Below, piece after piece: positions 294 to 34,618 of a stretch of 43,465 bases of DNA (position 1 is the stretch's first letter; every line of letters begins with the position of its first letter). The position numbers were made by a program, and so were the translations under genes. The DNA is taken from IMG/VR virus record IMGVR_UViG_3300045988_114701, positions 1 through 43,465 of that record; one strand, given 5' to 3'. The notes beneath the pieces are model-generated. The model ran no database searches. It saw only the letters and a program-made list of their open reading frames with translations, and had not been told where the DNA came from. This DNA comes from a virus.

Positions 294-1820
294 ATGACGC
301 TGGGCAGCCTGTTTGACGGCTCTGGCACTTGCCCGCTGGCGGCAACGATGTGCGGCATTAAGCCTGTCTGGGCAAGCGAGATCGAGTCGTACCCCATCCG
401 CGTAACGCGGAAGAACTTCCCCGAGATGCAGCATCTCGGGGACATCACGCAGATCAACGGCGCGGCGATCGAGCCGGTGGATATCGTTGCATTCGGCTCG
501 CCTTGTCAGGGCTTGAGCGCTGCCGGAGCGCAAAAAGGCATATTCGACGACGACCGAAGCAATCTGTTTTTTGAGGCAATCCGAGTAATCAAAGAAATGA
601 GGGTCGCTACACATGGGAAATACCCACGCTATGTCATCTGGGAAAACGTGCCGGGAGCGTTTTCAAGCAATAAGGGACGAGACTTTCTCGCCGTCCTGCG
701 GGCGTTTGCAGAAGCCGCAGGCGGAAAAACGTCTGATGTACCTGAACCTCCAGCAAAAGCCGGAAAGCTCAAATGGGGGGGTGCAGGAATCATCGTGGGA
801 GACGGTTACTCAATTGCATGGAGAGTCTTGGACGCCAAATACTGGGGAGTCCCCCAGCGTCGTAAGAGAATCTACCTTGTCTGCGATTTTGCAGGACGAC
901 GCGCCGGAGAAATACTCTTTAAGCGCGAGGGCCTGCGAAGGGATTTTGCGCAGAGCAGAAAAGCGCGGAAAGAAACTGCCGCCGATGCTGTGGGAAGCAC
1001 TGGTGGAAGCGGTGGAGCTGGGCGCGTAAATGATGGGATGTCGTATCATTTATTTGAGCCAAGATCGGCACTTGATGAGAACTGGGCTGAAACTGACGTG
1101 AAAAATGCACTTCGCGCAAACGCGAGCAAATCATCGCATATCGTTTGCTACGCGCTTCAAGGCAACGGAATCGACCGCGCAGACACAGCAGGATGCAATG
1201 GCAAAGGCTGGCGCGAAGACGTATGCTACACGTTAAACACGGTTGACCGTCCGGCGATTGCGTACTCGGCTGACTGCCGCAACATGCGGCTGAACGAGGA
1301 AATCAGCGGAACACTGCAAGCCAAGGGAAACGGCGGGTACAGCCTGAACTACCAAAATCCGGTTATATATCAAAACCCAAAGCGCGGCGAGTACGTGAAA
1401 AGCGAAGTCGGGTCAACGCTACTTGCGCACTTAGCCGTCGAGCCAAGGGATATTGTTGTTTACGACGCACGGGGTAACGGCGACGGACAGATTGTGCCGA
1501 CGTTGACCGGAGATCATGAAAGTCGTGTGACGGATTATACGGCACTGGCTATCGGAAATGGTCAGCTCGATCAGATTTATATGTCCGATACGGCAGGAAC
1601 ACTAAATTGTATGCACGACCAACAGGCGGTATTGCTTAAAAGACTATGGCGGTATATCGTCCGCCGGCTTACGCCGCTTGAATGTTGCCGACTGCAAGGC
1701 TTCCCAGATTGGTGGGAGGACGGTGTGTCGGGAAGCGACAGCGCGAGATACAAGATGTGGGGTAACGGCATGGCGTTGCCGTGTGTACTGTATGTGATGG
1801 AGGGAATAACGGATGGCTAA
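294..1820 (+). CDS. dcm: DNA (cytosine-5)-methyltransferase with an unusually long variable region
   Basis: Motif I LFDGSGT, IV GSPCQGLS, VI ENVPG, VIII QRRKRIYLV, IX RRLTPLECCRLQGFP, X GNGMALP. About 257 aa lie between motifs VIII and IX. Confidence 0.93.
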   Translation: MTLGSLFDGSGTCPLAATMCGIKPVWASEIESYPIRVTRKNFPEMQHLGDITQINGAAIEPVDIVAFGSPCQGLSAAGAQKGIFDDDRSNLFFEAIRVIKEMRVATHGKYPRYVIWENVPGAFSSNKGRDFLAVLRAFAEAAGGKTSDVPEPPAKAGKLKWGGAGIIVGDGYSIAWRVLDAKYWGVPQRRKRIYLVCDFAGRRAGEILFKREGLRRDFAQSRKARKETAADAVGSTGGSGGAGRVNDGMSYHLFEPRSALDENWAETDVKNALRANASKSSHIVCYALQGNGIDRADTAGCNGKGWREDVCYTLNTVDRPAIAYSADCRNMRLNEEISGTLQAKGNGGYSLNYQNPVIYQNPKRGEYVKSEVGSTLLAHLAVEPRDIVVYDARGNGDGQIVPTLTGDHESRVTDYTALAIGNGQLDQIYMSDTAGTLNCMHDQQAVLLKRLWRYIVRRLTPLECCRLQGFPDWWEDGVSGSDSARYKMWGNGMALPCVLYVMEGITDG

Positions 1821-4413: not shown

Positions 4414-4982
4414 GGATTTTGGCGATAGACCCCGGAACGACGCAGAGCGCGTATGCGCTGCTCAGCGATGAGTATCAAGTGCTGTCGGCGGACAAAGTCG
4501 AAAACGGCATAATGATGGACATCATCGCGTCAACTCCGGGAATCGACGCGGTCATCATCGAGGACATGGAGCCGCGATATCCGCGAAACGGAAAGGACAG
4601 CAGCGCGGCGGGCGCAATCGTCGGGGCAAGCACATACACCACGCTCAAGTGGATGGGCAAATTTGACCTGACGGCACAGGTGCGGGGCATTGCCGTACGC
4701 TGGATTTACAGGCGGGACGAGCGGGCGGCACTCATCCGCAAAAAGGAGCTTCCGGCGGACGCGCCGAAGCACGCAGACGGTCAGATTCGCGCCGCGCTGA
4801 TTGCGAGGTTTTCGGTTCATGACAAGGTCAATGGCAAGGGAACGAAAGCAAAACCGGACACGTTTTACGGCGTGTCCGGCGATATGTGGCAGGCGATTGC
4901 GGTAGGGGTGACGTGGCTTGACAAGCAGAGGACGGGAGGCGGCGACGGATGCGGATCGAAAAGAAGGACGCGCAGGCGTTGA
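4410..4982 (+). CDS. RuvC-like Holliday junction resolvase
   Basis: MRILAIDPGTTQSAYALL (catalytic Asp in an RNase H-fold first strand) and ..AVIIEDMEP acidic motif; GGGAGGGG RBS at 4398-4405. Confidence 0.75.
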   Translation: MRILAIDPGTTQSAYALLSDEYQVLSADKVENGIMMDIIASTPGIDAVIIEDMEPRYPRNGKDSSAAGAIVGASTYTTLKWMGKFDLTAQVRGIAVRWIYRRDERAALIRKKELPADAPKHADGQIRAALIARFSVHDKVNGKGTKAKPDTFYGVSGDMWQAIAVGVTWLDKQRTGGGDGCGSKRRTRRR

Positions 4983-5383
4983 TTGACTGCGGCTTTGCGG
5001 CGTACGATTACAAAACAGAGCTAGAACTGTACGACAACCGCGACGCCAAGGGGAGCGGATTTGACGGCATGCCCAAGCGGAGAGGGGCGGCGCGAGGACT
5101 TGACGATGAGCTTGTCCGCGAGCAGAACGCGAAAAAAAAGCTGTATGAAAAGCATACGGCTTTTTTGCGTGCCCAGCGGCGGGCGATGAAAGCACTGGAT
5201 GCAATCGTCGCGGGGCAGCCTCAGCAGGGCGAGTATATCATGGGCTTGCGGTCGTTTCTGAAGCTGTTTTATGTAGACGGCATGCCGATGAAGGCGGCGT
5301 GGAGGGAGGCGGGCATTGCGGAGCGGACGGCGCGGAGATACAAGGCGCAGGTCGTCAGGGCGGCGAAGGGCAAGAGGGCGTGA
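4949..5383 (+). CDS. Putative phage transcriptional regulator with a C-terminal sigma-70 region-4-like HTH (late activator candidate)
   Basis: ORF track. The C-terminus is ..GMPMKAAWREAGIAERTARRYKAQVV. At 144 aa it is the last gene of the early operon, resembling ArpU/RinA-type regulators in size and position. Confidence 0.45.
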   Translation: MRIEKKDAQALIDCGFAAYDYKTELELYDNRDAKGSGFDGMPKRRGAARGLDDELVREQNAKKKLYEKHTAFLRAQRRAMKALDAIVAGQPQQGEYIMGLRSFLKLFYVDGMPMKAAWREAGIAERTARRYKAQVVRAAKGKRA

Positions 5384-5397
5384 TTCAGCGCGCAAAA

Positions 5398-5425
5398 AAG
5401 GCTTGTACAAAGATGTACAAGCCTT
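5398..5425. terminator. Bidirectional intrinsic terminator between convergent operons
   Basis: Perfect 12-bp stem AAGGCTTGTACA / TGTACAAGCCTT with an AAGA loop. An A6 run upstream gives a U-run for the minus-strand transcript; TTGAATTT lies downstream. Confidence 0.75.
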
Positions 5426-5467: not shown

Positions 5468-5704
5468 TCATTCCGCTCTCACCTCCTCGATCTCAGGCTC
5501 GCAGTCATGGCTGCCCAAAGCGTCGCACAACACGACGTCTTTGTTGCCGCAGCCGCGACCGCAAGGGCAGGTGACAAACTTTGCCACAATCTGCCCCTCG
5601 CGAACAAGGGACACTGGCACAGTCGTGCCGTCGCCACAAAAACCGGAACCCTCGGGTTCGCCCCAAACGAGCGAATACCCCTTTTTCAGTGTCATATTAT
5701 TCAT
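5468..5704 (-). CDS. Hypothetical Cys-rich protein (78 aa), third gene of the accessory cassette
   Basis: ORF track 5468..5758. The internal ATG at 5704 is preferred: GGAGG at 5715-5719 on the minus strand, 10 nt upstream of it. Contains ..FVTCPCGRGCGNKDVVLCD..HDCEPE. Confidence 0.6.
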   Translation of the reverse strand: MNNMTLKKGYSLVWGEPEGSGFCGDGTTVPVSLVREGQIVAKFVTCPCGRGCGNKDVVLCDALGSHDCEPEIEEVRAE

Positions 5705-5729
5705 GATTTTTTTCCTCCTATGCGAATGT

Positions 5730-6248
5730 TTACTTGTTATGTCTGGCATAGTATCCATATTCGTCGCCGATGGGGAAGCGTCCGCCTGTTATCCACCAAG
5801 TTTTGACCGACAGCGAAACGGTTTTGCGCTCGCCGTTGTCGGGATAGGACAGCTTGACGGTATGGAGAGCGGACATCTGGGACACGGCATCAGCTAGGAT
5901 GCCGTCCGTGCTCTGCCCCGGCGTGAAATCCCACACAAGCGTCGGCGTAATGATATAGCAATAATTACCTTTGCCGTCCGTCGTCTGGTGACCTTTGCGG
6001 ATCAGCGCGTTGAGAGCGTCGCGGGAGATGCCGAGATCGTCAGGGATATCGACAGCCACGCAAAACATGATGATGTCATGCTCGTGTTCAACGCGGTTGA
6101 GAGCAGGGGGGCGTTCGGAGCGGTTAAGTCCGCCGAAAAAAGCCGAGATCGCATATTTGTCGGGCAACTGAGGCGGGGCAAAGCTCTTTGCGCAATACGG
6201 GGCGCAGGAGTGAAGAGCCATGTTGAATACATATTCCATCAAAGTCAT
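5730..6248 (-). CDS. Hypothetical protein (172 aa; start 6248 or 6239), second gene of the cassette
   Basis: ORF track; an AAAGGA RBS region lies just upstream. I recognise no family. Confidence 0.65.
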   Translation of the reverse strand: MTLMEYVFNMALHSCAPYCAKSFAPPQLPDKYAISAFFGGLNRSERPPALNRVEHEHDIIMFCVAVDIPDDLGISRDALNALIRKGHQTTDGKGNYCYIITPTLVWDFTPGQSTDGILADAVSQMSALHTVKLSYPDNGERKTVSLSVKTWWITGGRFPIGDEYGYYARHNK

Positions 6249-6290
6249 TCCTTTCTTTCCCCTAACACGGGGGACGCTGATATTATAGTA

Positions 6291-6689
6291 TCACAATGTG
6301 CCAAGCATTGCGACACTTATACGGGTCACGCGGTCACAAGCCTGACAGAGTGCGCGCGCTTGGGTATCAAGCCACTCTTCGCGGCTGTTGGGTCTGCGCT
6401 CGCCGTTGCGGGACTTGCGCAACTCAGACGGGGAGCAGAGACGCTCGGCGATGTCCTTGTTATAGATCAAGGATGAGCCGCCCCAGCTGTACGCCGCCCA
6501 GTCTTTCGCGCCGTTGAGCATCCACGCCCGGCACTCGCTGCCCGTCTGGGGGTCGCGCCCCTCATAAGAGGCGTAAGTCTCCAGCTGCTCCACCAGCTCG
6601 AGCGCGTATTGCGTCACGCCGCGATCCCACGCGCTACGGTCTTTGCGGGCTTCCAGCGCTTCGCGGATGCTGTCATAAGTGGTCTTCAT
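6291..6689 (-). CDS. Hypothetical protein (132 aa), first gene of the cassette
   Basis: ORF track; RBS AAAGGAAC 8 nt before the ATG. The segment NGAKDWAAYSWGGSSLIYNKDIAERLCSPSELRKSRNGERRPNSREEWLDTQARAL looks like a conserved mobile-element domain, but I cannot name it. Confidence 0.7.
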   Translation of the reverse strand: MKTTYDSIREALEARKDRSAWDRGVTQYALELVEQLETYASYEGRDPQTGSECRAWMLNGAKDWAAYSWGGSSLIYNKDIAERLCSPSELRKSRNGERRPNSREEWLDTQARALCQACDRVTRISVAMLGTL

Positions 6690-6760
6690 AATATCGTTCC
6701 TTTCTGCCCCTCTTGGGGGGCGGTCGCGGTTGTCTGGGCTGTTGCCCTTGTGATGGCTAT

Positions 6761-6789
6761 AGTATATCCGTAGACGGATAGAAACGCAA
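6761..6789 (-). promoter_or_regulatory. Sigma-70-type promoter for the minus-strand cassette
   Basis: Minus strand reads TTGCGT (6789-6784), a 17-nt spacer, then TATACT (6766-6761). The spacer contains the palindrome TATCCGT-CT-ACGGATA. Confidence 0.55.
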
Positions 6790-6863
6790 TACCGGAATAT
6801 TTCACAAATATAAATCTACGGATATGCGGAACAGTTGTGCAACTTGTATATATTGACGGATAT
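6765..6863. promoter_or_regulatory. Operator array: three sites built on ACGGATA(T)
   Basis: Perfect inverted repeat TATCCGT-AG-ACGGATA at 6765-6780, ACGGATAT at 6818-6825, and ACGGATAT at 6856-6863 overlapping the -35 of the plus-strand promoter. Confidence 0.5.
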
Positions 6864-6881
6864 TGTCCAATATGATATGAT
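6853..6881 (+). promoter_or_regulatory. Sigma-70-type promoter for the RHH gene
   Basis: TTGACG (6853-6858), a 17-nt spacer, then TATGAT (6876-6881), inside the run TATGATATGATATGAT. Confidence 0.55.
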
Positions 6882-6915
6882 ATGATTATCACAAGACAAG
6901 AGAGGAGCGGGAAAC

Positions 6916-7143
6916 GTGCCGATATCTGACGCGCAAAAGCGTGCTGCGGTCGCTTACAACCGGCGGCGCGACAGTATCACGATCAGACCATCTAAGACTG
7001 ACGGCGGCGCAGTGCGTGCCGCCGCTGCTGCTGCTGGTCAGCCGGTGCAAGTCTACATCATGCAGGCTTGCACCGAGCGCATGCAGCGCGACGGCTTCAC
7101 GCCTCCAGCAGATGACACAGCTGGAGACGATAAGACCCCATGA
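6916..7143 (+). CDS. Ribbon-helix-helix (Arc/CopG-like) DNA-binding protein (75 aa)
   Basis: GTG start with GAGGAG 8 nt upstream. The pattern KRAAVAYNRRRDSITIRPSK..GAVRAAAAAAGQPVQVYIMQACTERMQRDG fits strand, helix A, helix B of small RHH regulators. Confidence 0.6.
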   Translation: MPISDAQKRAAVAYNRRRDSITIRPSKTDGGAVRAAAAAAGQPVQVYIMQACTERMQRDGFTPPADDTAGDDKTP

Positions 7144-7148
7144 CAACA

Positions 7149-7181
7149 CCCCGATGGGCAGACGCTCGCCGGGGCTTTTTT
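7149..7181 (+). terminator. Weak candidate terminator after the RHH gene
   Basis: CCCCG (7149-7153) pairs with CGGGG (7170-7174), followed by CTTTTTT. The stem is only 5 bp with a 16-nt loop. Confidence 0.35.
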
Positions 7182-7190
7182 GTTCGCTTC

Positions 7191-7274
7191 AAGCCGATCC
7201 CCTCGCACGCGCGTCTCCCCTCGCATGAGGGGAGTGGATTGAAATAAGCCGATCCGCTCCCCCCTCGCACGCGC
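7191..7274. repeat. Direct repeats AAGCCGATCC...CCCTCGCACGCGC (two copies) flanking a hairpin
   Basis: Copy A is 7191-7212 and copy B is 7246-7274 (same sequence with a GCTCCCC insertion). CCCCTCGCA occurs three times. The hairpin CTCCCCTC-GCAT-GAGGGGAG lies at 7215-7234. Confidence 0.85.
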
Positions 7275-7311
7275 TGGCAAGGTTGGCAAGGTGGGACACG
7301 TTGCGGCATGC

Positions 7312-7334
7312 TTGACAGTATGATACAGTATAAT
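7312..7334 (+). promoter_or_regulatory. AT-rich promoter-like island TTGACAGTATGATACAGTATAAT (non-canonical spacing)
   Basis: Consensus TTGACA (7312-7317) and consensus TATAAT (7329-7334) are separated by only 11 nt. No good -35 lies 17 nt upstream of the TATAAT. It could be an activator-dependent -10-only promoter. Confidence 0.3.
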
Positions 7335-7529
7335 CGTCCCCGACGGCGGGACGAGGTCGCGGACTTCGTCGCCGCGTCGAGCGGCGATTATACGTTTTCG
7401 CGGCTGTGCGGCTTGCGCTGTGCAGCCGCTTACTTATATCTAGCTGCTTATCGAGCGCACAAGCACGCGCACCAGCTGACGCGGGGCAGAGCTGACGCAC
7501 GCAGGGGCGCAGGCGTGTAGCACGTTGGG

Positions 7530-7563
7530 CAGGCGCAGAGGGAGAGCAGGCGCAGGGGAGAGG
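7530..7563. repeat. Tandem 17-bp repeat CAGGCGCAG(A)GGGAGAG x2
   Basis: 7530-7546 CAGGCGCAGAGGGAGAG and 7547-7563 CAGGCGCAGGGGAGAGG. Related GGGCGCAGGC occurs at 7505 and 7643. Confidence 0.85.
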
Positions 7564-8044
7564 CTTCACCGGGCGACGATGTGCGCGGGGGGCTGGGGGG
7601 GTGCTTATGATATAGGTAGAGACGGCACCAGCTCGGGCGGACGGGCGCAGGCTCACAGCTGCGGACGCACCAGGCGGGCGGATGCGCCGACGGGCGTGCT
7701 CACAATAGGTAGGATTTGCGGCGATTATGCTGCGGATTATGACGCACGGTAGGGCTGATGGGGTAATAATGTAGATATTGCTGAGATTGCCGAGGGCTTG
7801 CGTGTGGGATGTGTACCCGCACAGGGCAAGCCCTTGCCCACACGCTGACGGACAGGCAGACGCAGGCGACGCGCGAAGGGCAAAATTTTGAAAGCAGATT
7901 CGCGGAAGGGCGGCGGGGGATGCGGAATTGACCACCTCAGGCGCGCCTACGGGCGAAGGACATATGCCTCCCCGCCCTGCGGGTGTTCCCCCTGCCGGTC
8001 AAGCAGGAAGCAAAAACGCGAAGAGAGCAGAACACATAAGCACT

Positions 8045-8079
8045 ATTCCAGAACTCACACGAGTTTCTGGAATTTTTTT
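8045..8079 (+). terminator. Strong intrinsic terminator 39 nt upstream of terS
   Basis: ATTCCAGAA (8045-8053) pairs with TTCTGGAAT (8065-8073). The stem is extendable by CTC/GAG and runs straight into T7 (8073-8079). Confidence 0.85.
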
Positions 8080-8117
8080 ATACCCATAGGGGCAGGTCAA
8101 AAAAAGGAGGGATAGGC

Positions 8118-8561
8118 TTGGGAAAGAACAAGGCGCGTACGCCGCCGCCGAACAGAAAACTGACGGACGAGCAGCGCAGAGAGGTTGTACGCAGGTATGT
8201 AGAGGAGTACGAGACGGTCAGCGAGCTGGCACGGGAGTACGGAGTAGACAGGGCGACGATTTACAGAGTGCTGGGCGCGGAGGAGCACGCGGGAAGAATC
8301 AAGGCACTGTCGGATGCGAGGCTGGCGCAGGCAAAGATCAGGATTCTTGAGCAAGTGCCTGCGGCACTCGACCGCAACGAGGAAATTCTAAACACGAATT
8401 ACGACCCTGCATTCCAGTATCTGTGGCAGAACGCCATCCGGGACACACTGGACAGAGCGGGCATCAAGGCGACGAAGGACGAGAAGCAGGACATCAGTAT
8501 TTCTTTTGCGAGTGATGGGTTTGAGCTGGGCATGCCGGAGAGCGGGACAGACGAAGAATGA
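8118..8561 (+). CDS. terS: Terminase small subunit
   Basis: TTG start 7 nt after AGGAGG (8105-8110). The N-terminal HTH is LTDEQRREVVRRYVEEYETVSELAREYGVDRATIYRVL. It lies immediately upstream of terL with an ATGA overlap. Confidence 0.8.
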   Translation: MGKNKARTPPPNRKLTDEQRREVVRRYVEEYETVSELAREYGVDRATIYRVLGAEEHAGRIKALSDARLAQAKIRILEQVPAALDRNEEILNTNYDPAFQYLWQNAIRDTLDRAGIKATKDEKQDISISFASDGFELGMPESGTDEE

Positions 8562-9964
8562 GCAGCATTGTGTTTGACTACAAGCCGACGGCGAAGCAAC
8601 GGCTGTTTCACGCGAGCAAGAGCAACGAGATTCTGTACGGAGGCGCGGCTGGCGGCGGTAAGAGTTACGCCATCTGCTGGGATGCATTCATGCGCTGTTT
8701 GAAATACCCGCGAACAAATGCGTACCTGTTTAGGCGGACATATCCTGAATTGGAGCAGACGCTTATCAAGACGATGCGCGACATCGTTCCGGAAGAGTTG
8801 GGCAGGTATTACAGCGGAAACCACGAGATGAGGTTCTTCAACGGGAGCGTCGCCCGGTTCTGCCATTTGAGCGATGAAGGGACATGGCGCAATTATCAGG
8901 GTGCACAGATACAGTGGCTGTACTTTGACGAGCTGACGCACTTCAGCGAAAGCATGTACAACTTTATCAAGACACGTTTGAGGGCACCGAAAAACCTGAA
9001 TGTAAATCCGTGTACGCGATGCGCAAGCAACCCCGGCGGTCCGGGACATGGCTGGGTAAAGGCGCGATTCGTGGACAGCACGGACGTGGGGAAACGCACC
9101 GTGGTGCAAGATACGGAGTATCTTGCTCAAAACGGGAAAATGAAGAAAATGAAATCCATTTGCGAATATATCCCGGCTACTGTATACGACAACCCATACA
9201 TCGACGATATGTATATCGTCGAGCTGCAAAACAAGCCGTCGAAGCTGAGAGACGCCATGCTGTACGGGAAATGGGAAGCGTTCGAGGGGCAGGCGTTCCC
9301 GGAATTTACGAACGACCCTGAGCATTATAAGGACGGGCTGCATACGCACGTCATCGACCCGTTCGACATTCCGCTGCACTGGACGCGGTACGTCAGCTTT
9401 GACCACGGCTTTTCACGTCCGTTCTCGTTCGGCGCGTGGGCGGTTGACCCTGACGGCAGGGCATACCGATACAAGGAACTGTACGGCTGCAAAAAGGGAG
9501 AGGCGAACGTCGGCTTGATGCTCACGCCGGGCGAAATCGCGGCGAAGCTGGCGGACTGGCTTGAGCCGGAATTCAGAGAAGGCATTCATATCACGGGCAT
9601 TGCAGACCCTGCCATCTGGGACGAGAGCCGGGGAACGAGCGTAGAGGAGCAGATCCGCAAGGTCTTTTCCGGCGTCACGTTCCGCAAGGGCGACAACACG
9701 CGGATGCCGGGCAAGATGCAGGTGCATGAGCGGCTGCGGTTTGACGAGGACGGGCGACCGATGATGTACATATTCAGCAACTGCACGGAATTTATTCGCA
9801 CGATTCCGACGCTGTGCTACGACGAACACAAGGTTGAGGACATCGACACGGCGGGCGAAGACCACATCTACGACGAGACGCGATACTTTTTAATGTCAAG
9901 ACCGCTCGCGCCGAAGATCGTCGCGCCCAAACCGAAGCGGAAAGCGTGGAATCCGCTGGACTAA
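8558..9964 (+). CDS. terL: Terminase large subunit
   Basis: Walker A LYGGAAGGGKSY and Walker B-like WLYFDELTHF. The 468-aa protein has a C-terminal nuclease-type region (..DHGFSRPFSFG.., ..GEDHIYDETRY). Confidence 0.92.
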   Translation: MSSIVFDYKPTAKQRLFHASKSNEILYGGAAGGGKSYAICWDAFMRCLKYPRTNAYLFRRTYPELEQTLIKTMRDIVPEELGRYYSGNHEMRFFNGSVARFCHLSDEGTWRNYQGAQIQWLYFDELTHFSESMYNFIKTRLRAPKNLNVNPCTRCASNPGGPGHGWVKARFVDSTDVGKRTVVQDTEYLAQNGKMKKMKSICEYIPATVYDNPYIDDMYIVELQNKPSKLRDAMLYGKWEAFEGQAFPEFTNDPEHYKDGLHTHVIDPFDIPLHWTRYVSFDHGFSRPFSFGAWAVDPDGRAYRYKELYGCKKGEANVGLMLTPGEIAAKLADWLEPEFREGIHITGIADPAIWDESRGTSVEEQIRKVFSGVTFRKGDNTRMPGKMQVHERLRFDEDGRPMMYIFSNCTEFIRTIPTLCYDEHKVEDIDTAGEDHIYDETRYFLMSRPLAPKIVAPKPKRKAWNPLD

Positions 9965-9973
9965 GGAGGATGT

Positions 9974-11809
9974 ATGAGAAAGAGGGATTCCCCGCCGGGG
10001 GATATCAGACAGAGCAAGCCGGAGGAATTCGGTGAACAGCCGCTCTCGCCGGAGGAAAAGGCGCTCGTAGGCAGGGCATACGCGCTGTTTGATTTTTTCA
10101 ACAACGAGCTGCGCGACGCACACAAGGCCATGCGTGCGGCACGCATGATGCGCCAATTGCAGCAGGAGGAGCGGAGCTTGACCGCACCGGTCACCAGCAC
10201 GCTGAACAGCTGCATTGACAACGTCATCGCCGACCAGATTGACAACATGCCGGAAGCGGTCATGGTGCCTGAACGCGAGGAGACGGCGCAGAGCGCGGAA
10301 GAGATGAGCGACGTTGTCAGCTATGCCCTGTATCAGGCGGGATTCAGGGGGACGTATCAGACGCTGATGGAGGACGCGGCGGTCACGGGAACGGGCATCG
10401 CGCAGGTGTTTTGGGACGACGACCTTGAGGACGGCGACGGCATGATCAACGTGCTGGCGTGGCATCCGGAGGACTTCTACCCCGACCCGACGCAGGAAAA
10501 CATTCAGGACGGACGCGCATGCTTCAAGGTGACGCACACGACGGTTGCGTGGGTCGAAGAGCATTACCCGCACGCACGCGGCTATGTACGCGCCGACCCC
10601 AACAATGACGATACCGATTACAGCCTGCAAAACATCGCGGAGGGCGACGAGGGCGTGATGCTGCTGGAATTCTGGTATCGACGGTATGACGCGGACAAGC
10701 GTCGGCACATGGTGCATATGGCGCAGTTGGCGGGTCACGCGCTGCTGTACAGCACGGAGCTTGGCTTCGGCGGCGCGGGAAAGACGGAATACAAAGACGG
10801 CGTATACGCGCACGGCAGGTATCCGTTTGTCTTGTACAAGTACAGGAGCGTATGGCGCAAGCCGTTCGGCACGGGGCTTGTACACGACTACTACGGCACG
10901 CAGAACATGATCGACAGATGTCTCAAGTACATCGACGACAACGCCCGCGAATCGAGCGTGCAGCGGCACTTTATCCGGCGCGGAAGCGGCGTCAATCCGG
11001 AAGACGTTGCGGACATGCGCCGCACCATCATCGAGTGGGAGGGCAACGATATTCGCGAGGCGATTCAGACGGTGCAGGCGGCACCGCTGAACGGGCAGGT
11101 CTATCAGGCAATGAATTACCTCGTGGATTCGATGAAGCAGGACTGCGGACAGAACCAGTTCAGCCGCGGAGAAGGCGGACTTGGCGTTACGGCTGCGGCT
11201 GCCATTCAAGCCCTTCAGGAGGCGGGCGGCAAAACGACCCGCTGGCACACGGAGCAATTCAAGAACGCTTTCCGCGAGATGGTCGAGCAGATGCTCTGGG
11301 TATTGAGCGACTATCTGGACGCAGAGCGCAAATTCAGAATCGTCGGCGGATGGGATTCGAGTGGGAATATGAAGGATAAGCTCGTGCAGCTCATCGCGCC
11401 GATGCGCGACAACGGCAGACTGCCCAAGCCCGCGTACACGGTGCGCGTGCAGGTGCAGAAGAACAACCCCTTGCAGGTACAGGCAGACAACGAATTCCTC
11501 TTGCAGGTTGCGCAAATCTGCGGACAGGCGGGTCAGGCACTGCCGCCCGAATCGGTCATTCGCCTGATGGAGGGATATCGGACAAAGTCGAGCGTGCTGC
11601 GCATGGTCGAGCAGAACAGCGCACAGCAGGCTCTCATTGCTCAGATGCAGCAGCAGATTGAGCTGCTTACCAACCAGAACACGGGCATGCAGGCGGTCAT
11701 CGGCGAGTACAAAAACATGCTCGCGACGCCCGCCCAGCTTGAAGCCAAGCAGCAGGAGGCGGACTATAACCCGATGCTGCAAGCAACCAAGGACGCCGAG
11801 AACGGCTGA
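9974..11809 (+). CDS. Portal protein
   Basis: 611-aa ORF directly after terL and before scaffold and capsid; AGGAGG RBS. Called on size and position. Confidence 0.8.
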   Translation: MRKRDSPPGDIRQSKPEEFGEQPLSPEEKALVGRAYALFDFFNNELRDAHKAMRAARMMRQLQQEERSLTAPVTSTLNSCIDNVIADQIDNMPEAVMVPEREETAQSAEEMSDVVSYALYQAGFRGTYQTLMEDAAVTGTGIAQVFWDDDLEDGDGMINVLAWHPEDFYPDPTQENIQDGRACFKVTHTTVAWVEEHYPHARGYVRADPNNDDTDYSLQNIAEGDEGVMLLEFWYRRYDADKRRHMVHMAQLAGHALLYSTELGFGGAGKTEYKDGVYAHGRYPFVLYKYRSVWRKPFGTGLVHDYYGTQNMIDRCLKYIDDNARESSVQRHFIRRGSGVNPEDVADMRRTIIEWEGNDIREAIQTVQAAPLNGQVYQAMNYLVDSMKQDCGQNQFSRGEGGLGVTAAAAIQALQEAGGKTTRWHTEQFKNAFREMVEQMLWVLSDYLDAERKFRIVGGWDSSGNMKDKLVQLIAPMRDNGRLPKPAYTVRVQVQKNNPLQVQADNEFLLQVAQICGQAGQALPPESVIRLMEGYRTKSSVLRMVEQNSAQQALIAQMQQQIELLTNQNTGMQAVIGEYKNMLATPAQLEAKQQEADYNPMLQATKDAENG

Positions 11810-11842
11810 CAACGCGAAAAGGCGCGATAAGGAGAAAAACAC

Positions 11843-12613
11843 ATGGAAGAGCTTGAGAATACGGTCGATATGACGCAGGAGCTTGCGGACGACGCGCAGG
11901 CGGGGCAGGAGGTCACCCTCAGCGACCTTATGGACAATCTGACGGGCGGGGCGCAGGCGGCGGAAACGGAAGAAACGGCTGAACAGACGGGTGACGGCGA
12001 CCCGGAAACACAAGCGCAGCCCCAGACGGAAGACAACAAGGACAAATTCGGACGGCGCATCGCGTCGGCACTGGCAAACCAGAAGCGGGGATTCCAGAAG
12101 GACATCGACTTTTCGGCACGGGTGCATGGCGCGGCGGGCGACATGACGGACGATGAGATCACGGAGGCACTCAGGGACTATCAGGCGCGCAGGATAGCCG
12201 AGAGCGACGCCGACATCAGCCCGAAAGCCGCACGCAGGATCGTCGAAGCGCAGGAGAGAGCCAACCAGACCCAAGCGGACAACCCGCAGAGGGGAGAAGC
12301 TGAGGCAGAGGTGCAGAGCCTCTACGCCGACGGCTGGACGGAGGATGAGCTGCTGGCGCTGACGAATGACGCGGAGGTTCAGCGGCAGTTTGCGTCGGGC
12401 ATGAGCCTGCGCAAGGCAGCCAAGATGTATTTGCAGCGGCAGCAGACCAAGCCGCCGCAGACACCCAAGCGGGGCGTTCCGACGGCAAAAACAGCCGGAT
12501 CGGGCGCACCGCCGGACGATAACGCCATTGCCAACATGACAGACGCGGAGTTCGACGCTTTTCAAAAGCGCGTCGAACGCGCCGCCATGGAGGGTAAGCG
12601 CGTGAAATTTTAA
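11843..12613 (+). CDS. Scaffolding protein (putative)
   Basis: 256-aa, strongly acidic, predicted helical, lying between portal and major capsid. Confidence 0.6.
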   Translation: MEELENTVDMTQELADDAQAGQEVTLSDLMDNLTGGAQAAETEETAEQTGDGDPETQAQPQTEDNKDKFGRRIASALANQKRGFQKDIDFSARVHGAAGDMTDDEITEALRDYQARRIAESDADISPKAARRIVEAQERANQTQADNPQRGEAEAEVQSLYADGWTEDELLALTNDAEVQRQFASGMSLRKAAKMYLQRQQTKPPQTPKRGVPTAKTAGSGAPPDDNAIANMTDAEFDAFQKRVERAAMEGKRVKF

Positions 12614-12625
12614 GGAGTAAGAGAT

Positions 12626-13570
12626 ATGGCATATACCAATACCAATACCAACATGACCAACAGCACCGGCTTGACGCCGGGCATGCAGACCTATTACAAC
12701 CGCACCCTGCTCAAGGTGTTTGAGCCGAATCTTGTCCATTTGCAGAACGCGGACGTGTACCCGATGCCGCTGCACAACGGCTTGGTTCAGAACTTCCGCA
12801 AGCTCATCCCGCTTGAGGGCAGCACGACCCCGCTGAGCGAGGGCAACCCGGGCGACAGCGTCATGTACAGCGAGGTTGCCGTCACCGTGCAGCTCAATCA
12901 GTACGGTCAGTACGCCCGCACCACGGACAAGCTGGACATGAGCCACATGGACTTGACGATCGACCGCAAGGTTAAGATGCTGGGCGACGCGGGCGCGAGA
13001 AGCATCGACACGCTGGTGCGCGAGGAGCTGGCGACCTGCACCAACGTCATTTACGCAAACGGCAAGACCAGCCGCGCCACGCTGACGCCTGCGGACAAGA
13101 TCACCAGCAAGGATATTCGCCGGGCGGTCAAGATGCTCAAGAAGAACCTTGCCAAGCCGTTCAACGGCTACTACATCGCCATTATCGGTCCCGATACGAC
13201 GTTTGACCTTCAGGAAGACGACGCCTTCATCAAGGTCAGCCAGTATCAGGACAAGGAGAACATCTACACGGGCGAGGTCGGCAGGCTGTTCGGCGTGCGC
13301 TTCATCGAGACCACGCAGGCTAAGATTTTTGAAAAGGCGGGCGCATCCAGCGCGGACGTGGCAAGCATCATCGTGCTGGGTCAGTACGCCTACGGCATCA
13401 CGAGCTGGACGAGCGCAAAGCCGCGTGTGATCGTCAAGCCGGCAGGCAGCGCGGGCACGAACGACCCGCTCGATCAGATCAGCACGGTCGGCTGGAAGAT
13501 GGACGGATTCGGCGTGAAGCTGCTTCAGCCGGAATTCGCGGTGCGCATCGAGACGGGCTTTACGGCTTAA
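12626..13570 (+). CDS. Major capsid protein
   Basis: 314-aa ORF after the scaffold gene with a strong RBS (AAGGAG), followed by a strong terminator. The N-terminal ..TYYNRTLLKVFEPNLVH.. pattern recalls the N4-gp56-type capsid family, from memory. Confidence 0.8.
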   Translation: MAYTNTNTNMTNSTGLTPGMQTYYNRTLLKVFEPNLVHLQNADVYPMPLHNGLVQNFRKLIPLEGSTTPLSEGNPGDSVMYSEVAVTVQLNQYGQYARTTDKLDMSHMDLTIDRKVKMLGDAGARSIDTLVREELATCTNVIYANGKTSRATLTPADKITSKDIRRAVKMLKKNLAKPFNGYYIAIIGPDTTFDLQEDDAFIKVSQYQDKENIYTGEVGRLFGVRFIETTQAKIFEKAGASSADVASIIVLGQYAYGITSWTSAKPRVIVKPAGSAGTNDPLDQISTVGWKMDGFGVKLLQPEFAVRIETGFTA

Positions 13571-13575
13571 CACTC

Positions 13576-13610
13576 GGGGGCGGGGCATTCGCCCTGTCCC
13601 CTTTTCTTTT
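13576..13610 (+). terminator. Intrinsic terminator after the capsid gene
   Basis: 11-bp stem (13576-13586 with 13591-13601, two G-U pairs), ATTC loop, then TTTTCTTTT. Confidence 0.8.
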
Positions 13611-17140: not shown

Positions 17141-20100
17141 ATGACATGGCTTGACGACAAGCGCAAACGCGACGAGGAAGAGGCACAGCGCCAAAGAGCC
17201 GCGCAGGAAGCGGCAAGGGAGCAAAGGACGCAGGAGCAGCGGCTCAAAGCCGAAGAAAGAGCGCACAGAGCGGCGCAGGAGAGCCTGCGCCCTGCCAGCG
17301 AACAGAAGGTGAATACGGCGCCGCTTGTGGTCAACCTGGACACGCAGACCAACCAGAGCGCGGCGAGGATTGCAAGCCGAATCCCGGATGAGACGGAACG
17401 CGACGGCTTTTTGGCGGAATACATCGCCCATGTGAAAAAACAGAGCAGCCCGAACTATCAGAAATACGCGCCGACAATCGGCACGATGCGCGAACTGACG
17501 GACGCGGTTGTGACGGGCGGCGTATATGCCGACACGCGGAAGAAATACGAAAAGCAGCGGCTCAAGGAGATTGAGACGCAGAAGACCGGGAAGGCGGCGA
17601 TGGCGGAGCTGGCCGAAATGCCCTTGATGGGCTTTGACGGGCAGAACATCAACGCCAATACGGCGGACGCGGCGACGGTGATTCGCGGCATCAACTCCAT
17701 TGCGGACGACACGCTGCGCACGCGGGCGGCAAAGGCGTTTAAGACGCTGGCGCAGACCGAGGGTAGCCGATTCTACGGCGAAAACACGGACGGCGTTGGA
17801 ACATTCCTCGAAAGCGCGAACCTGACCCATGACGAATACAGGAACGCGGCGGAGGACTACGCGAGCCGATTCTACGGCGACGGAAAACACGACGAGGAAG
17901 ACGCTACTGCCTACCTTGAAGCGCGGCAGGAGATAGAGGAAAGCGCATACTCCGACTACGCAAAAAGCCAACTGACGGCGGCACTTGACAAGGCATATAC
18001 GGGAATCACGGGCGGGGAAGCGCCTTCCTCCGGCACGGATGACGCACCCGCCGAGGTGACAGACGAGGAACGCACGACCGAGAAAGAACAGAAGAAAGAG
18101 AAGAAACCGGGATTTTGGAGCGGTCTGACCGGGAAAGTGCCTGAGCAGGACGAACAGACGGAAGAAAAGACCGCAAGTCACGCGCTGGAGAAGGCGCAGA
18201 GCCAGATCGTTTCCCAAACGTTGACGGCATCGACCGCGCCGGGTTTCCCGACGACGGCCAAGGGGAAGGACGATAAGAGCGGCAAAGCACCGGAGGTGCA
18301 AGGCCCCGTTCAGATGACCCCGGAGGAGCGGATCATTGCGCAGGGCGGGATGAGCTTTGCGCAATGGCTGGCGGCAACTCCTTCCGTCAGCTCCGCGAAC
18401 GAAACGGGCGCGGGAATTCCCATGCACGAGGCGCAGACCGTCGGCGAGGCGGCGGGCGCACTGCTCAAGGGACAGTATGACCAGATCGAGGGCACGGGCA
18501 AGGATGAGCTGGATCGTATGCTGGCAGAGAGCGGGTACGCACGGCGGATGATCGGCACGCTGACGGAAGCGGATAGCAAGTTCATTCTCAGCGGAAGCGA
18601 CAGAGCCGACAGGGTGCCATACGGGAACATCGCGTCGCAGGGGCAGACGATCAAGACGCTGTATGACGTGATGAGGAGCGATTCCTTCCCGGACGAGCTG
18701 CGGGGCGACGTGATGGCGCAGATGGTCGTATGGGCTGCGCAGGCCGAAGCGATGGAGCAAACGGGGACACTGGGCGGCGACGCGGATCTGCCGCTGATGG
18801 AACGCCTGCTCACCACGGACGAACACGCGATGGACGAGCTGGAAAGCATCTACGCGGCCAGAGACGAGCTGCTAGCCGACAAAGCCGACATGCGCAGGGC
18901 GCAGGAGGAGGCGAGTGCGCAGGCACTCAGCGACGCACGCACGGCGGCACTCAAAGGAACAGCCAGTGAGGAACAGCTCGCGCTGGTGCGCCAGAACGCG
19001 CAGGTGGGGCAGGCCGAGCTGAACGCGGACATGGGCTACGTCGGGCGGCTGGCGGCGGTGGACGACTATTTCAGACCGGGCGCGGGCAAGGGCGCGGTCA
19101 GTCCGTTTGATTCAAGCAGCGTAAAGCTGAACCTCGACGCGCAGGGCGTAATCGACACGGGCGACTATCAGGCACAGCTCAGGGAACAGATGGACGCGCT
19201 GCTCGAAGAAGACACGCAGACGGCTCTTGCGCTGGGACTGACGCTGGACGAATACTACGCCAAGACGGGCGGCGTGGACATGAACGCGCTTTGCGAGCGT
19301 GCTGCCAGCCGCATCAGCCAGCAGGGCGCGGCGATCACCGATGAGGAAATGGCGGCTCTGGACGCTTCCTTTGGTCAGGGCGTGGGCGCGGGCTACATGA
19401 TCGGCGCGGGCATCCGCACGGGCGGCGAGCAGTGGTATCTGGATTTCAAGGACAGCCTGTACGCGGGCTACTCTCAAGGCATGGTGTCTCTCAACGCGGC
19501 GAGCATCCAGAACCGATACCAGAACGAATACGGTGCTTATGGTCGGACGCAGTACCGAAAGGACATCGAGAACGCGCTTAACAGCGGGACACTCGATGAG
19601 AATTACGCCGAGGCACTGAGAAAGGCACTGGTCAGCGCGGCAGACGTATACCAGCTTGGCATTGACCCGATGGATTTTGACGGGGTTTTCCTCAAAAACA
19701 GCGCGGAAATTCGCCGGGACATCGCGACGATGGAAGGATACATGCGAACGAACGCGACGGAGGATGAATTCAAGTGGTTCGGGCGCGTGAAGAGCATGAC
19801 CTACAACACGGTTTCTGCCGGTGTGGCGGCGGGAACGACGATGTTGACGGGAAGTAGTCTGCTTGGCTTTAACATGGGGTACAGCGTCGTCGGGTTCAAG
19901 AACAACTTTGACGAGTATCTGCAAAAGGGGTACAGCATCGATTCCGCCCGATATCTGGGCGCGGTGAACACGGCGCTTGACTGCGCGGTGAACATCGGCA
20001 CGTTCGAGGGCGTGTTGGGCAGGATGACGGGCATGAGCGCACTGACGGAAGCTGCGAGAAGCCAGATCATCCGTAACCCGGCGGGCGCAAGCCGAGGGCT

Positions 20101-23100
20101 GGCGGCGATTGGGGCGTTTAGCAAGGCGTTCGCCCAAAACGAATTTGACGAAGTGGTTCACGACGAATTCTTTGAAGGATTGGCGGCAAACTGGACGGAC
20201 AACGCGCTGGGCGAAATCTTCCGCAAGGTGGACGCGGGCGAGGACATCACGTTCACGGACGGTCTAAACATGTCGCTGAACCTGCTGAATCCCAAAAATC
20301 TTGATGTGATGGGCGCGGCGGAGGGCGTTGTCAGCGGCGCGGTGGAGAACGCCATCGGCGCAGTGGTGTTCTCCCTGTCCGGCGCGGTGGGAAGCGGCGT
20401 GGGTACGCTGCGCGGCGTGAAGGCGGCGCAAGACCTGATGAACGGCAAGCGGACGGACGTAGAAAACGTCATCCTGGACGTGACAAAGACGCTGGGCGAC
20501 GAGCAGGCCTGCGCACTGCTCAATGACTACGCACGGCAGCAGAAGGAAAGCAAAACCGTTGCCGAGGAAATCATCAGCGGGCGGGACGAGAGCGGAAGCG
20601 CGGCGCACGCGGCAAAAGCCAAGCAGCAAGCAGACGAGGCACGCACGCAGGCGGAAGCGGCGCAGACGGCGGCGGACAACAGCCGGGCGCAGTTCACAGA
20701 AGCGGGCGACGCGGTGATGCGCGGCGACCTGACGCAGCAGAAGGGAATGACCGAAGCACGCGTGCGCATGGGCGAAAGCCAGAAAACCGCGAACGAACAG
20801 GGCGATGTCGCCGCACGCAGAACGGACGAAATGCAGCAGGCGGCGGCTGAGCGGCTGACAGAGGCGAGACAGGCGGGCAGGAAGGCCGTCATCTCGGAGG
20901 ACGCGGCGGCGCGGGAAGCCATGCTTGACGACCGGGAAGCGCGGATGCAGGCTATTGATAACGAGATCGCACAGCTCGACGCGCAGGAGCAGGCAGCGGA
21001 GGAAGAATTCTACGCGGCGGCGCAGAGCTATACGGAAGCGGAATCCATGGGAATGGACGCGGAAACGCTTGACCAGCTCGACGCACGGATGACCGAGATC
21101 GGCGAGCGGATGGCGGCACTTTCCGACCGCCGGGAAGCACTGAAAAACCCGGAGGCCTACGAGGCACGCCGAAAGGCGGAAGCTCAGGAGCAGCAGGCAC
21201 AGGAAGAATATCAAAGGCAGCTCGAGAGGGAGCAGACACAGAGCGAGATGGACGAGATTGCCCCGGTGGTGATGGACATCCGCAACAAGCGCATCTGGCT
21301 GAACGAACAGCAGATTGCCGAGGTGCTGCACACGACGGGACTGCGGACAATCACTCAGGTGAATCGCCAATACGGCACACAGTTCCGCGTCAACCGCAAG
21401 AGCGCGGACGTTGACCTTGACAGCGGCTTTTTCCGCGAGCTGGCGGCGCAAATCCCCGGACGGATGGACGAGGAGAGCACGCACCCGGAGACGGAAATTC
21501 TGAATCTGCTGGACAGGAACGGCGTGCTGAAAGGCGAGCTGGGCGGGATGGAAGCCAGCATGGGCGCAGTTGGCGCGGAAGACTATCTGAAAGCGGACGT
21601 TTCGCGCGGCAACCTTGACCCGGTGACGCAGAAGCTCGCCAGCAACCTGAAACAGAAGACGGGGCTTGAGCTGATCGTCATGCCGCTGGCAGACAATGTT
21701 CGCGGATTCTACGACCGAGAAAACGGGCGGCTGATTCTTTCAAACCGAATCGGCGCGGGCGAGCAGATGCGACAGGTGGTCATGCACGAGCTGACGCACT
21801 ACATCGAGAGTACGAAGAATTATGAAGCCTACGAAAAGGCGGCACTGGAAGCCGCCTATCGCGGCGATACAAAGGCGATGGACAGAGACGCGGCGGAAAT
21901 CCGCAAGACCTATGAGGATGCGGGTCTCCCCTGCGACGTGAACAAGGAACTGACCGCTGCGGCGACGGAAAAGCTGATGACCTCCCTTGGCGCATGGGGC
22001 AGGACGGGCAGCGAGACGCTTGTGTATGACTTGCTTGGCGCGAAGCAGTCCTTCCCAATTCGCGTCTACAACAAGCTGACGCAGTTTTTAGCCCGACGCA
22101 AAGCCCAAAGAGCAGGCGGCGCGGAGGCAGACCACTATGCGGCACTGGTCAGGGCGCGGGATGCGCTCAGGCAGGCCATTCTTGAAGCCGGGACATGGAA
22201 AAAGGGCATGGGCGGAGAGGATGCGACCATCGAGCTATTCGGAAAGACCGCGCCCGTAGAGCGGGAGGTCACGCGAGGACAACAGACGGAGATGGAATAT
22301 GCCGTCGCCCCGCGACAATTCGGCAACCAGACGGCTCAGGACCTCGACACGCTGACAGACCGGACAAAGGATTTCCTGCGCGGAAGCCAGTACGAAACCG
22401 TGACCAACCGGGAGCAGGTGCAGCGGGCAAACGACGATATCAACGCACGCGGCATTGACGCGGTGGTGAACGACCTGCTGTCGCGGGACAGATGGACGGC
22501 AGACGACCACGCGGCGGCGGCTGTGGCGTTCATCCGTGCGGAAAACGAGGGACTGAATACAACGGCGTGGGCGATTGCCTCTGCCTATGACGAGCAGGGC
22601 ACTAATGCCGGTCAGGCATTGCAGGCAAGACAGGTCATTAAAAAGCTGACTGCTGCGGGCGCACTGGTAGAGGCGACGAAGAAAGCCGACCACGCCAACG
22701 CGAAAAAGGGACTGGTGGAAGGCGATATCCCCGTCGGCAACCAAGCACCTGTGAAGGGATGGCGCGACAGACAGCAGAGAAGCAAGGAAGGCACTGAGAC
22801 GAAACAGAACGTCAGCCCGACGGGCGAGTTCGACCCGGACAACCCGTTCAACAAAGGCAGGACTTCCGTTTTGCCGCAGGATGCGGTGTCAGGCGCGGGC
22901 GGCTCGGCGGGCGACGCGGTGCAGGGCAGTTTCGTTGAAAAAACGCTGCCGCCGGTACTCGAAAAGGTCTACACTGCGGCGGAGCTGATTCAGCGTCAGA
23001 TCGACAAGCTGCCTTCCGACGTGAGCTATGACAACCCGTGGAACGTGCCGCTTGAAGGCTGGAAGATGGAACTCATCGACCAATACAGACTAGGCGGAAT

Positions 23101-34597: not shown

Positions 34598-34618
34598 GTC
34601 ATAATTCGCGGCATAATT
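34598..34618. repeat. attP arm repeat, copy 2: GTCATAATTCGCGGCATAATT
   Basis: See copy 1. This copy overlaps the int stop codon at 34617-34619. Confidence 0.8.

Follow-up and report, generated by a model that had tools for sequence, protein, structure and literature searches.

We analysed a reversed cassette of three small genes in a temperate, siphovirus-like phage genome of 43,465 nucleotides (IMG/VR record IMGVR_UViG_3300045988_114701), the whole of which is referred to below as the window. The cassette encodes proteins of 132, 172 and 78 amino acids (aa), here named gpA, gpB and gpC, and is faced by a divergent gene for a ribbon-helix-helix (RHH) protein. We lean, by a little, towards reading the locus as an anti-defence island under an RHH repressor of the anti-CRISPR-associated (Aca) kind, its cargo being separate counter-defence proteins and not the subunits of one machine. 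This reading draws on sister phages that exchange the cargo on a common regulatory platform, on the company that gpA and gpC homologues keep with the anti-CRISPR (Acr) family AcrIC5, and on operators that change together with the RHH protein. A first-pass annotation, made from the letters of the window, had described an autonomously regulated accessory unit of oppositely oriented genes within a plus-strand stretch. That description holds. Open reading frames (ORFs) of 132, 172 and 78 aa are present and are real genes on the basis of protein-level conservation, homologues having been found for each; the unit has its own predicted promoter, terminator, divergent RHH gene and operators, and lies where the early operon gives way to the late one.

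Cargo turnover among sister phages

Homologues and gene orders were obtained by tblastn and phmmer searches and from 222 fetched loci. The backbone of the window (TerS, TerL, portal and the 144-aa and 190-aa upstream genes) was common to seven sister phages beyond L001/L167, and their cassettes differ in content (Table 1).

Table 1. Cassettes of the window and of sister phages; the RHH gene is followed by the cargo in order
Phage	Regulator	Cargo
Window	RHH	gpA, gpB, gpC
L001	RHH	gpA, 80 aa, gpB, gpC
L002	RHH	70 aa, gpA, c479, c482
L003	RHH	gpA, c152, c479, c482
L080	RHH	135, 78, 33, 149, gpB
L081	RHH	238, 106, 149, gpB
L155	RHH	?, 78 aa, gpB, gpC
L168	RHH	?, 78 aa, .., gpC

The full trio recurred solely in what is essentially the same phage, L001/L167 (IMGVR_UViG_3300045988_097304). 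The L001 proteins were 96% (gpA), 95% (gpB), 100% (gpC) and 98% (TerS) identical to those of the window, and the RHH protein only 48%; in L001 gpA and gpB are separated by an additional gene of 80 aa, and the operator word is wholly unlike that of the window. A near-identical phage with another RHH protein and other operators indicates that single cargo genes, and the regulator together with its operators, are exchanged over very short stretches of evolutionary time. Four sister cassettes that keep the RHH platform lack gpA, and in two of them, L080 and L081, gpB closes the cassette. A gpB homologue stands alone, on the opposite strand and beside a holin module, in a Christensenellales prophage, and gpC was met both in cassettes of unrelated phages and as the first gene of a long array of co-directional genes. 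With gpB alone elsewhere, gpC in the company of other partners and gpA missing in sisters, the gene comparison indicates that the three genes are independent modules. The proposal of one self-contained three-gene system, made at first pass, was thus contradicted: the sister phages hold the RHH platform and exchange cargo gene by gene, and the trio was essentially not syntenic elsewhere, apart from near-identical phages, an outcome that the annotation itself had named as speaking against its proposal.

Association of the cargo with AcrIC5

Equivalent reversed cassettes, headed by a divergent RHH gene and lying beside the packaging region, were found in other gut phages and carry AcrIC5-family genes (PF22147; E = 5e-25 and 2e-20, 88 and 73 bits against a cut-off of 27). 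AcrIC5 stands in one operon with a gpC homologue at L085-88 and L092 and with a gpA homologue at L037 and L112, and at L172 the two are fused. The fusion protein, P0152, joins gpA (2-127) to AcrIC5 (134-196) within 196 aa; it was found on 7 contigs in the equivalent slot, three of which (L172-L174), from different samples, are shown. The RHH-controlled cassettes of other phages in which gpC occurs together with AcrIC5 also hold an LPD25 protein, LPD25 being a domain defined in polyvalent conflict proteins. The natural gpA-AcrIC5 fusion, in a very large family, makes gpA a high-value target for functional work.

The RHH protein and its putative operators

The window RHH protein alone scored weakly (NikA-like, E = 0.065; phrog_13890, E = 8e-5) and had no match among PDB sequences. 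A profile built from 15 homologues matched TacA/DUF1778 (E = 0.0026), CopG and NikA in the PDB, and Arc weakly. Eleven of the 15 homologues matched the Pfam NikA-like family (best E = 7e-8), and others TacA1, ParD or RHH_1. The profile confirmed the first-pass assignment of the divergent gene to the RHH superfamily. The protein has no evident toxin-binding C-terminal domain conserved with the cargo.

The 226-bp intergenic region between cargo and RHH gene contains three copies of ACGGATAT, all within 6764-6863. The word occurs four times in the window against 0.62 expected, a count reached in none of 100 shuffles. These sites, one of them in a perfect palindrome, make up the operator array that had been placed between the divergent genes, and their putative positions relative to the two promoters are given in Table 2. 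Both promoters are consensus predictions; the cargo promoter was read from the sequence and from a comparison of eight sister phages, a generic promoter scan having missed it. Across the sister phages the cargo side follows the scaffold TTCCGGTATTGC-N17-TATACT, in which the -35 block is conserved in 6 of 8 phages (it is divergent in L001 and L081) and the -10 in all (TAAACT in L155).

A phage-specific 7-8-mer is repeated at least three times in each phage at equivalent positions, namely in the promoter spacer and at two upstream sites. L168 shares the repeated ACGGATAT of the window; the word is GACTGTTAAC in L001, TTCCAGTC / ACTTGTA in L003, TACATGT in L080 and ATTAACGT in both L081 and L155. 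A shared word goes with a shared RHH N-terminal arm and β-strand, even where the C-terminal halves differ (L081 vs L155), and differing N-terminal regions go with differing words. Such co-variation is expected if the RHH protein reads its sites through the N-terminal strand. We infer from it, as the strongest pre-experimental evidence, that the RHH protein is the repressor of the cassette and its own autoregulator.

The transcript, with a predicted start near 6754, would begin with a leader that, in the sister phages, precedes unrelated first genes. Inspected by eye, its hairpin next to the ribosome-binding site (RBS) contained a single compensatory exchange (C-G to G-C) and several G-U variants; RNAalifold returned only 3 invariant pairs from a MAFFT alignment of the leaders that was of poor quality. 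The covariation weakly supports a functional RNA structure. The intrinsic terminator at the far end was confirmed where it had been annotated; its 12-bp stem leads, read on the minus strand, into U6, and it probably also terminates the convergent plus-strand gene 4949-5383. Every sister cassette closes with a hairpin and T-run, the sequences of which differ.

Table 2. Features of the cassette and landmarks of the window
Feature	Position	Strand	Description
C5 methylase	294-1820		
Intrinsic terminator	5398-5425	-	Perfect 12-bp stem, 4-nt loop, then U6; -29.8 kcal/mol, z = -3.6
gpC	5468-5704	-	78 aa; third cargo gene
gpB	5730-6248	-	172 aa; second cargo gene; rare uncharacterised family
gpA	6291-6689	-	132 aa; first cargo gene; uncharacterised phage/prophage family
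Conserved 5' leader	6690-6754	-	~70 nt; hairpins about 6747-6736 and 6721-6706; RBS about 6704-6696
Predicted cargo promoter	6761-6789	-	-35 TTGCGT 6789-6784, 17-nt spacer, -10 TATACT 6766-6761
Operator O1 (putative)	6765-6780		Perfect palindrome TATCCGTAGACGGATA; fills cargo-promoter spacer, abuts -10
Operator O2 (putative)	6809-6825		TATAAATCTACGGATAT; half-site copy between both promoters
Operator O3 (putative)	6847-6863		TATATATTGACGGATAT; overlaps RHH promoter -35
Predicted RHH promoter	-35 6853-6858; -10 6876-6881	+	-35 TTGACG, 17-nt spacer, -10 TATGAT
RHH gene (predicted repressor)	6916-7143	+	75 aa, GTG start
Terminator-like hairpin + T6	7148-7181	+	After RHH gene; kept in all sister phages
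TerS	8118-8561		With helix-turn-helix domain
TerL	8558-9964		
Tyrosine integrase	34617-35696	-	Starts next minus-strand block

The three cargo families

No family had been recognised for the three proteins at first pass, and none emerged here: gpA, gpB and gpC had no match in Pfam, PHROGs, PADLOC or NCBIfam and no meaningful one among PDB sequences, and PADLOC-DB 2.0 returned 0 families for all four cassette proteins at E <= 1. Neither AcrIC5 (PF22147) nor any other Pfam Acr family matched gpA, gpB or gpC at E <= 1. Toxin domains were absent from the cargo in Pfam and NCBIfam (GNAT, PIN, RelE and HicA-type domains were checked in Pfam), as were antirepressor domains of the ANT, Bro-N or KilA type by Pfam. 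None of the three proteins has a transmembrane segment, a hydrophobic segment or a lipobox, and all appear soluble. When 150 cargo families from these operons were scanned with Pfam, no further anti-defence, defence or toxin family came up, and about 90% of them had no match at all. The structure search that had been suggested was run with Foldseek on the gpA and gpB models and gave no fold match, the TM-scores being low (at most 0.39).

gpA belongs to a very large family, with 3,588 homologues and, by exhaustive HMMER search, 1,292 representatives at 50% identity. Homologues were found in phages and prophages only, a protein search of 72,556 plasmids giving no match; they occur in isolated Parabacteroides and Eggerthella phages and in prophages of Oscillospiraceae, Lachnospiraceae, Bacteroidota and Coriobacteriia, so that the family ranges over gut Firmicutes, Bacteroidota and Actinomycetota, three or more phyla. 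Homologues of 51% identity were also seen on two contigs binned as Candidatus Saccharibacteria (L217 and L218), either a real extension of the host range or a binning artefact. The conserved-looking core remarked upon at first pass was borne out by 42 invariant columns in an alignment of 66 sequences; the invariant residues include R, S, W, G, Y, N, E and Q, and the core looks enzyme-like or ligand-binding. The protein has a neutral isoelectric point (pI). Its AlphaFold2 model is all-helical (predicted local distance difference test score, pLDDT, 78; predicted TM-score 0.76), residues 61-100 being only moderately confident, and Foldseek found no match at E < 0.1 in the PDB or BFVD. A novel fold is not proven, because the centre of the model is only moderately confident. 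Searched against PDB sequences, gpA gave a chance-level match to AcrIC9 (E = 0.6) that vanished with the family profile and was rejected.

Outside the reversed cassettes gpA lies near the start of an apparent early operon; Eggerthella phage EL753P1, for instance, has it in third place behind a divergent 188-aa gene, which we take for the repressor by position alone. In many phages it accompanies the 74-aa protein c9 and an FtsK/SpoIIIE-like ATPase of roughly 250 aa, and at many loci (L004-L069 and L175-L190) this module is convergent with a GP3_package-like gene that apparently closes the early operon rather than encoding the true small terminase. Besides AcrIC5, gpA is fused to the cassette protein c223 (P0232 and P0200 are listed among the fusions), and in 11 of 150 family representatives the N-terminus is formed by DUF3849, a domain of which no mention was found in the literature searched. 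One further homologue, P0026, carries a DnaJ domain.

The gpB family is small, with 9 homologues. Its AlphaFold2 model is mostly β-strand (pLDDT 76) and had no fold match in the PDB at E < 0.1; a search of PDB sequences likewise gave no match. gpC has 18 homologues, across which TCPCGRGCG and H66 are invariant and C23 nearly so; the cysteine cluster pointed out at first pass is therefore a real feature of the family and, with the invariant histidine, probably forms a zinc site. gpC is acidic (pI 4.7). An in-frame upstream ATG at 5758 would extend it to 96 aa, and a length of 78 aa or fewer is favoured because of the RBS and the homologues. At L089-L091 the co-directional array headed by a gpC homologue includes Amidoligase_2 and GGACT/AIG2-like genes, families typical of conflict-associated peptide-tagging systems.

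Proposed mechanism and alternative explanations

In the anti-defence reading, the platform of divergent RHH gene, three cognate operators, promoter, structured leader and terminator would be a portable unit, lying in a recombination hotspot flanked by the last early gene and the packaging genes, and carrying exchangeable single-gene cargo. Upon DNA entry, with the RHH protein absent, the cargo promoter would fire and the small proteins would neutralise host immunity. RHH protein made from the facing promoter would then build up and bind O1 in the cargo-promoter spacer, O2, and O3 on its own -35, turning the cargo off, limiting its own synthesis and holding expression at a low level in the lysogen. 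Repression, the timing of expression and the anti-defence activity of gpA, gpB and gpC are what we infer from sequence comparison. Among the functions put forward at first pass, an anti-defence operon under Aca-like repression fits best; a toxin-antitoxin pair or a known defence system found no support, there being no PADLOC match, toxin domain or transmembrane segment and the orientation being divergent.

Several observations weigh against the anti-defence reading. The window's own cassette holds no known anti-defence gene, and the case is one of association plus a single fusion; AcrIC5 occurs at 8 of 133 gpA loci, about half of those eight having been fetched with AcrIC5 as bait. The regulator is divergent, unlike the last-gene regulator of classical acr-aca operons. 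gpA keeps ~70% identity across unrelated phages and 42-48% across phyla, which is unusual for an Acr and fits a core early phage function equally well, and its company with the FtsK/SpoIIIE-like ATPase and c9 hints at a role in DNA handling. A reversed, self-promoted and self-terminated cassette is also the classical shape of a moron expressed from the lysogen, and the lone gpB homologue is a gene of just that form. The structure searches came back empty, though the gpA model is only moderately confident over 61-100. Given cargo without a validated relative, AcrIC5 in a minority of loci, a divergent regulator, and the conservation and ATPase/c9 company of gpA, our confidence in an anti-defence island stands only a little above even. 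Its more specific form, that gpA is a new anti-defence effector, possibly acting against type I-C systems alongside AcrIC5, that the RHH/operator/leader unit is a heteroimmune 'plug-in' and that gpB and gpC add two more families, is offered tentatively and as the less probable side of the question.

If the cargo consisted of lysogenic-conversion or defence morons, prophage-expressed proteins would protect the lysogen by superinfection exclusion or an abortive-infection-like response, with the RHH protein merely setting the level. The reversed orientation with private promoter and terminator, the lone opposite-strand gpB homologue adjoining the holin module of the Christensenellales prophage, and the gene-by-gene cargo turnover, which is typical of defence hotspots too, all suit this account. 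We nevertheless think it unlikely: the cargo proteins are very small, show no defence or toxin domain in PADLOC, Pfam or NCBIfam and lack the transmembrane segments or lipoboxes that many exclusion proteins carry, their operons are shared with an anti-CRISPR family to which one of them is fused, and gpA elsewhere lies in an apparent early lytic operon. Another account gives gpA a core early function, for example handling DNA or taking over the host together with the FtsK-like ATPase and c9; the cassette would then be a set of unrelated accessory genes that share no theme. The extreme conservation of gpA, its enzyme-like residue pattern, its spread over three or more phyla and the recurrence of the gpA-c9-FtsK_SpoIIIE module beside a GP3_package-like gene argue for such a role. 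Yet gpA is dispensable in sister phages, has neither an FtsK nor a c9 partner in the window, and is fused to AcrIC5 and other cassette proteins, which leaves the core function distinctly unlikely.

A divergent RHH repressor with operators facing an operon in a temperate phage also recalls the immI module of P22 (mnt / arc-ant), in which case gpA would be an antirepressor silenced by the RHH protein and the downstream genes passengers. The weak match of the RHH profile to Arc agrees with this, as does the usual place of the conserved gpA at or near the head of its operon, opposite a gene for a small repressor or for a recombinase. The chance of it is nonetheless slim, for the RHH platform persists without gpA in four sister phages, gpA has no Bro-N, ANT or KilA-type domain, its fusion partners (AcrIC5, c223 and DUF3849) are not repressor-binding modules, and it occurs at 42-70% identity in phages of three phyla with unrelated repressors. 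A toxin-antitoxin pair is close to negligible in our estimate. RHH homologues do match the Pfam antitoxin families TacA1, ParD and HicB and TacA-like antitoxins in the PDB, but the RHH gene is divergent and not co-transcribed with the cargo, no GNAT, PIN, RelE or HicA-type toxin domain is present, one RHH platform serves unrelated cargo, and the RHH protein is without an obvious toxin-binding C-terminal domain conserved with the cargo.

Comparison with known systems

An RHH-type Aca protein, Aca14, has been shown to act on inverted repeats at the -10 to repress the anti-defence operon that encodes it as well as adjacent ones, and structured motifs are found in the 5' untranslated regions of acr-aca operons (PMC13551039). 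Set beside that published description, the locus is alike in its small DNA-binding autoregulator with repeats on the promoter, in variable, tiny, unannotated cargo swapped between related phages, in a structured 5' leader, in one regulator serving two promoters (as predicted here) and in the presence of AcrIC5 in equivalent cassettes. What marks an acr-aca autoregulator is found here in predicted form, with O1 in the cargo spacer and O3 on the RHH -35. It differs in that the regulator is divergent and outside the canonical aca position within the operon, is NikA-, TacA- and CopG-like, would control cargo that in the window includes no known Acr, and lies at the early/late junction beside the terminase genes of gut Clostridia-type phages. 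AcrIC5 itself has orthologues in Firmicutes and Actinobacteria and blocks the type I-C system of gut Eggerthella (Leon et al. 2021, PMC7913775). It shares operons with gpA and gpC homologues and a polypeptide with gpA in P0152, and is small and acidic like gpC, whereas gpA, at twice the length, is neutral in pI and its model has no known structural match.

P22 immI resembles the locus in that a divergent RHH gene and operators control a separate operon outside the main immunity region, but here there is one RHH protein and not two, no antirepressor domain, and a variable, dispensable cargo. Moron and accessory hotspots share the private promoter and terminator, the reversed orientation and the gene-by-gene turnover in near-identical phages; here, by contrast, a dedicated repressor, operators and leader are retained and the operator specificity itself is swapped. 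The domains of polyvalent proteins in phages and conjugative elements (Iyer et al. 2017, PMC5512222) offer a further parallel, gpA occurring solo or fused to DUF3849 (itself N-terminal in these fusions, with gpA C-terminal), AcrIC5 or c223, and LPD25 occurring in gpC cassettes. Both findings fit the pattern of a conflict domain found solo or fused; gpA differs in matching no Pfam LPD family and in its absence from the plasmids searched.

Setting of the cassette in the window

The cassette lies between the gene at 4949-5383(+), the last of the early operon, and the packaging genes, and gpA, gpB and gpC are the sole credible minus-strand genes from about 300 to 34,400. The window also contains a DUF6275 gene. 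A crude composition-based gene caller preferred an antisense ORF at 5988-6476(+) (162 aa, of coding-like composition), which spans the gpA/gpB junction; it was rejected because protein-level conservation backs the gpA and gpB frames. Another ORF of coding-like composition, 9896-13588(-) (1,230 aa), runs opposite the portal region and overlaps conserved genes on the opposite strand. Both are most likely artefacts of GC-rich sequence.

The gene at 4949-5383(+), just upstream of the cassette, encodes a 144-aa basic protein (pI 9.9) without a Pfam match. Other phages have a GP3_package-like DNA-binding protein in this slot, and the 144-aa protein may regulate late genes. On the other side, the ~970 nt from the RHH stop to the TerS start (7144-8117; 64% GC) hold no credible ORF and carry blocks kept in all seven sister phages, the RHH terminator among them. 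One such block, GCTTGACAgTATGATAcaGTATAATCGTCC at about 7307-7336, is perfectly conserved and has consensus -35 and -10 hexamers just 11 nt apart; others are a hairpin at 7400-7429, with a 13-bp stem and a tail rich in T, and repeats of GATTAT(G/A)C at about 7385 and 7718-7745. The gap could hold a promoter and antitermination leader for the late operon, a pac region, or both. L070-73 have a comparable stretch of 1.35 kb without genes upstream of their gpA cassette. In the structural region a single ORF of 2,711 aa, 17141-25276(+), is unusually long and may be a tape-measure or tail-fibre-like giant. Rfam gave nothing at gathering thresholds anywhere in the window, and a nucleotide search of the phage collection gave two weak gut-virome matches only.

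Significance

The general kind of system, an Aca-type repressor over mosaic counter-defence cargo, is already known, and the locus is a good experimental lead but no surprise for the field. What is new is a divergent NikA/TacA-like RHH gene with three predicted operators across two promoters, a conserved leader into which cargo would be plugged, a constant position where the early and late operons of gut Clostridia-type phages meet, and three uncharacterised cargo families, of which gpA is among the larger unannotated phage families and is naturally fused to an anti-CRISPR. To our knowledge, gut Clostridia-type phages have almost no characterised counter-defence genes. The RHH gene, operators, leader and terminase-side position together provide a regulator-anchored handle for mining anti-defence cargo from thousands of gut phage genomes. 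Should the cargo prove not to be anti-defence, the locus would still be informative, its three genes being independent modules. The natural series of RHH/operator specificity swaps suits the study of how phages avoid cross-repressing their counter-defence genes; if the proposal for gpA and its heteroimmune platform is true, these swaps would keep resident prophages from silencing the counter-defence genes of an incoming phage.

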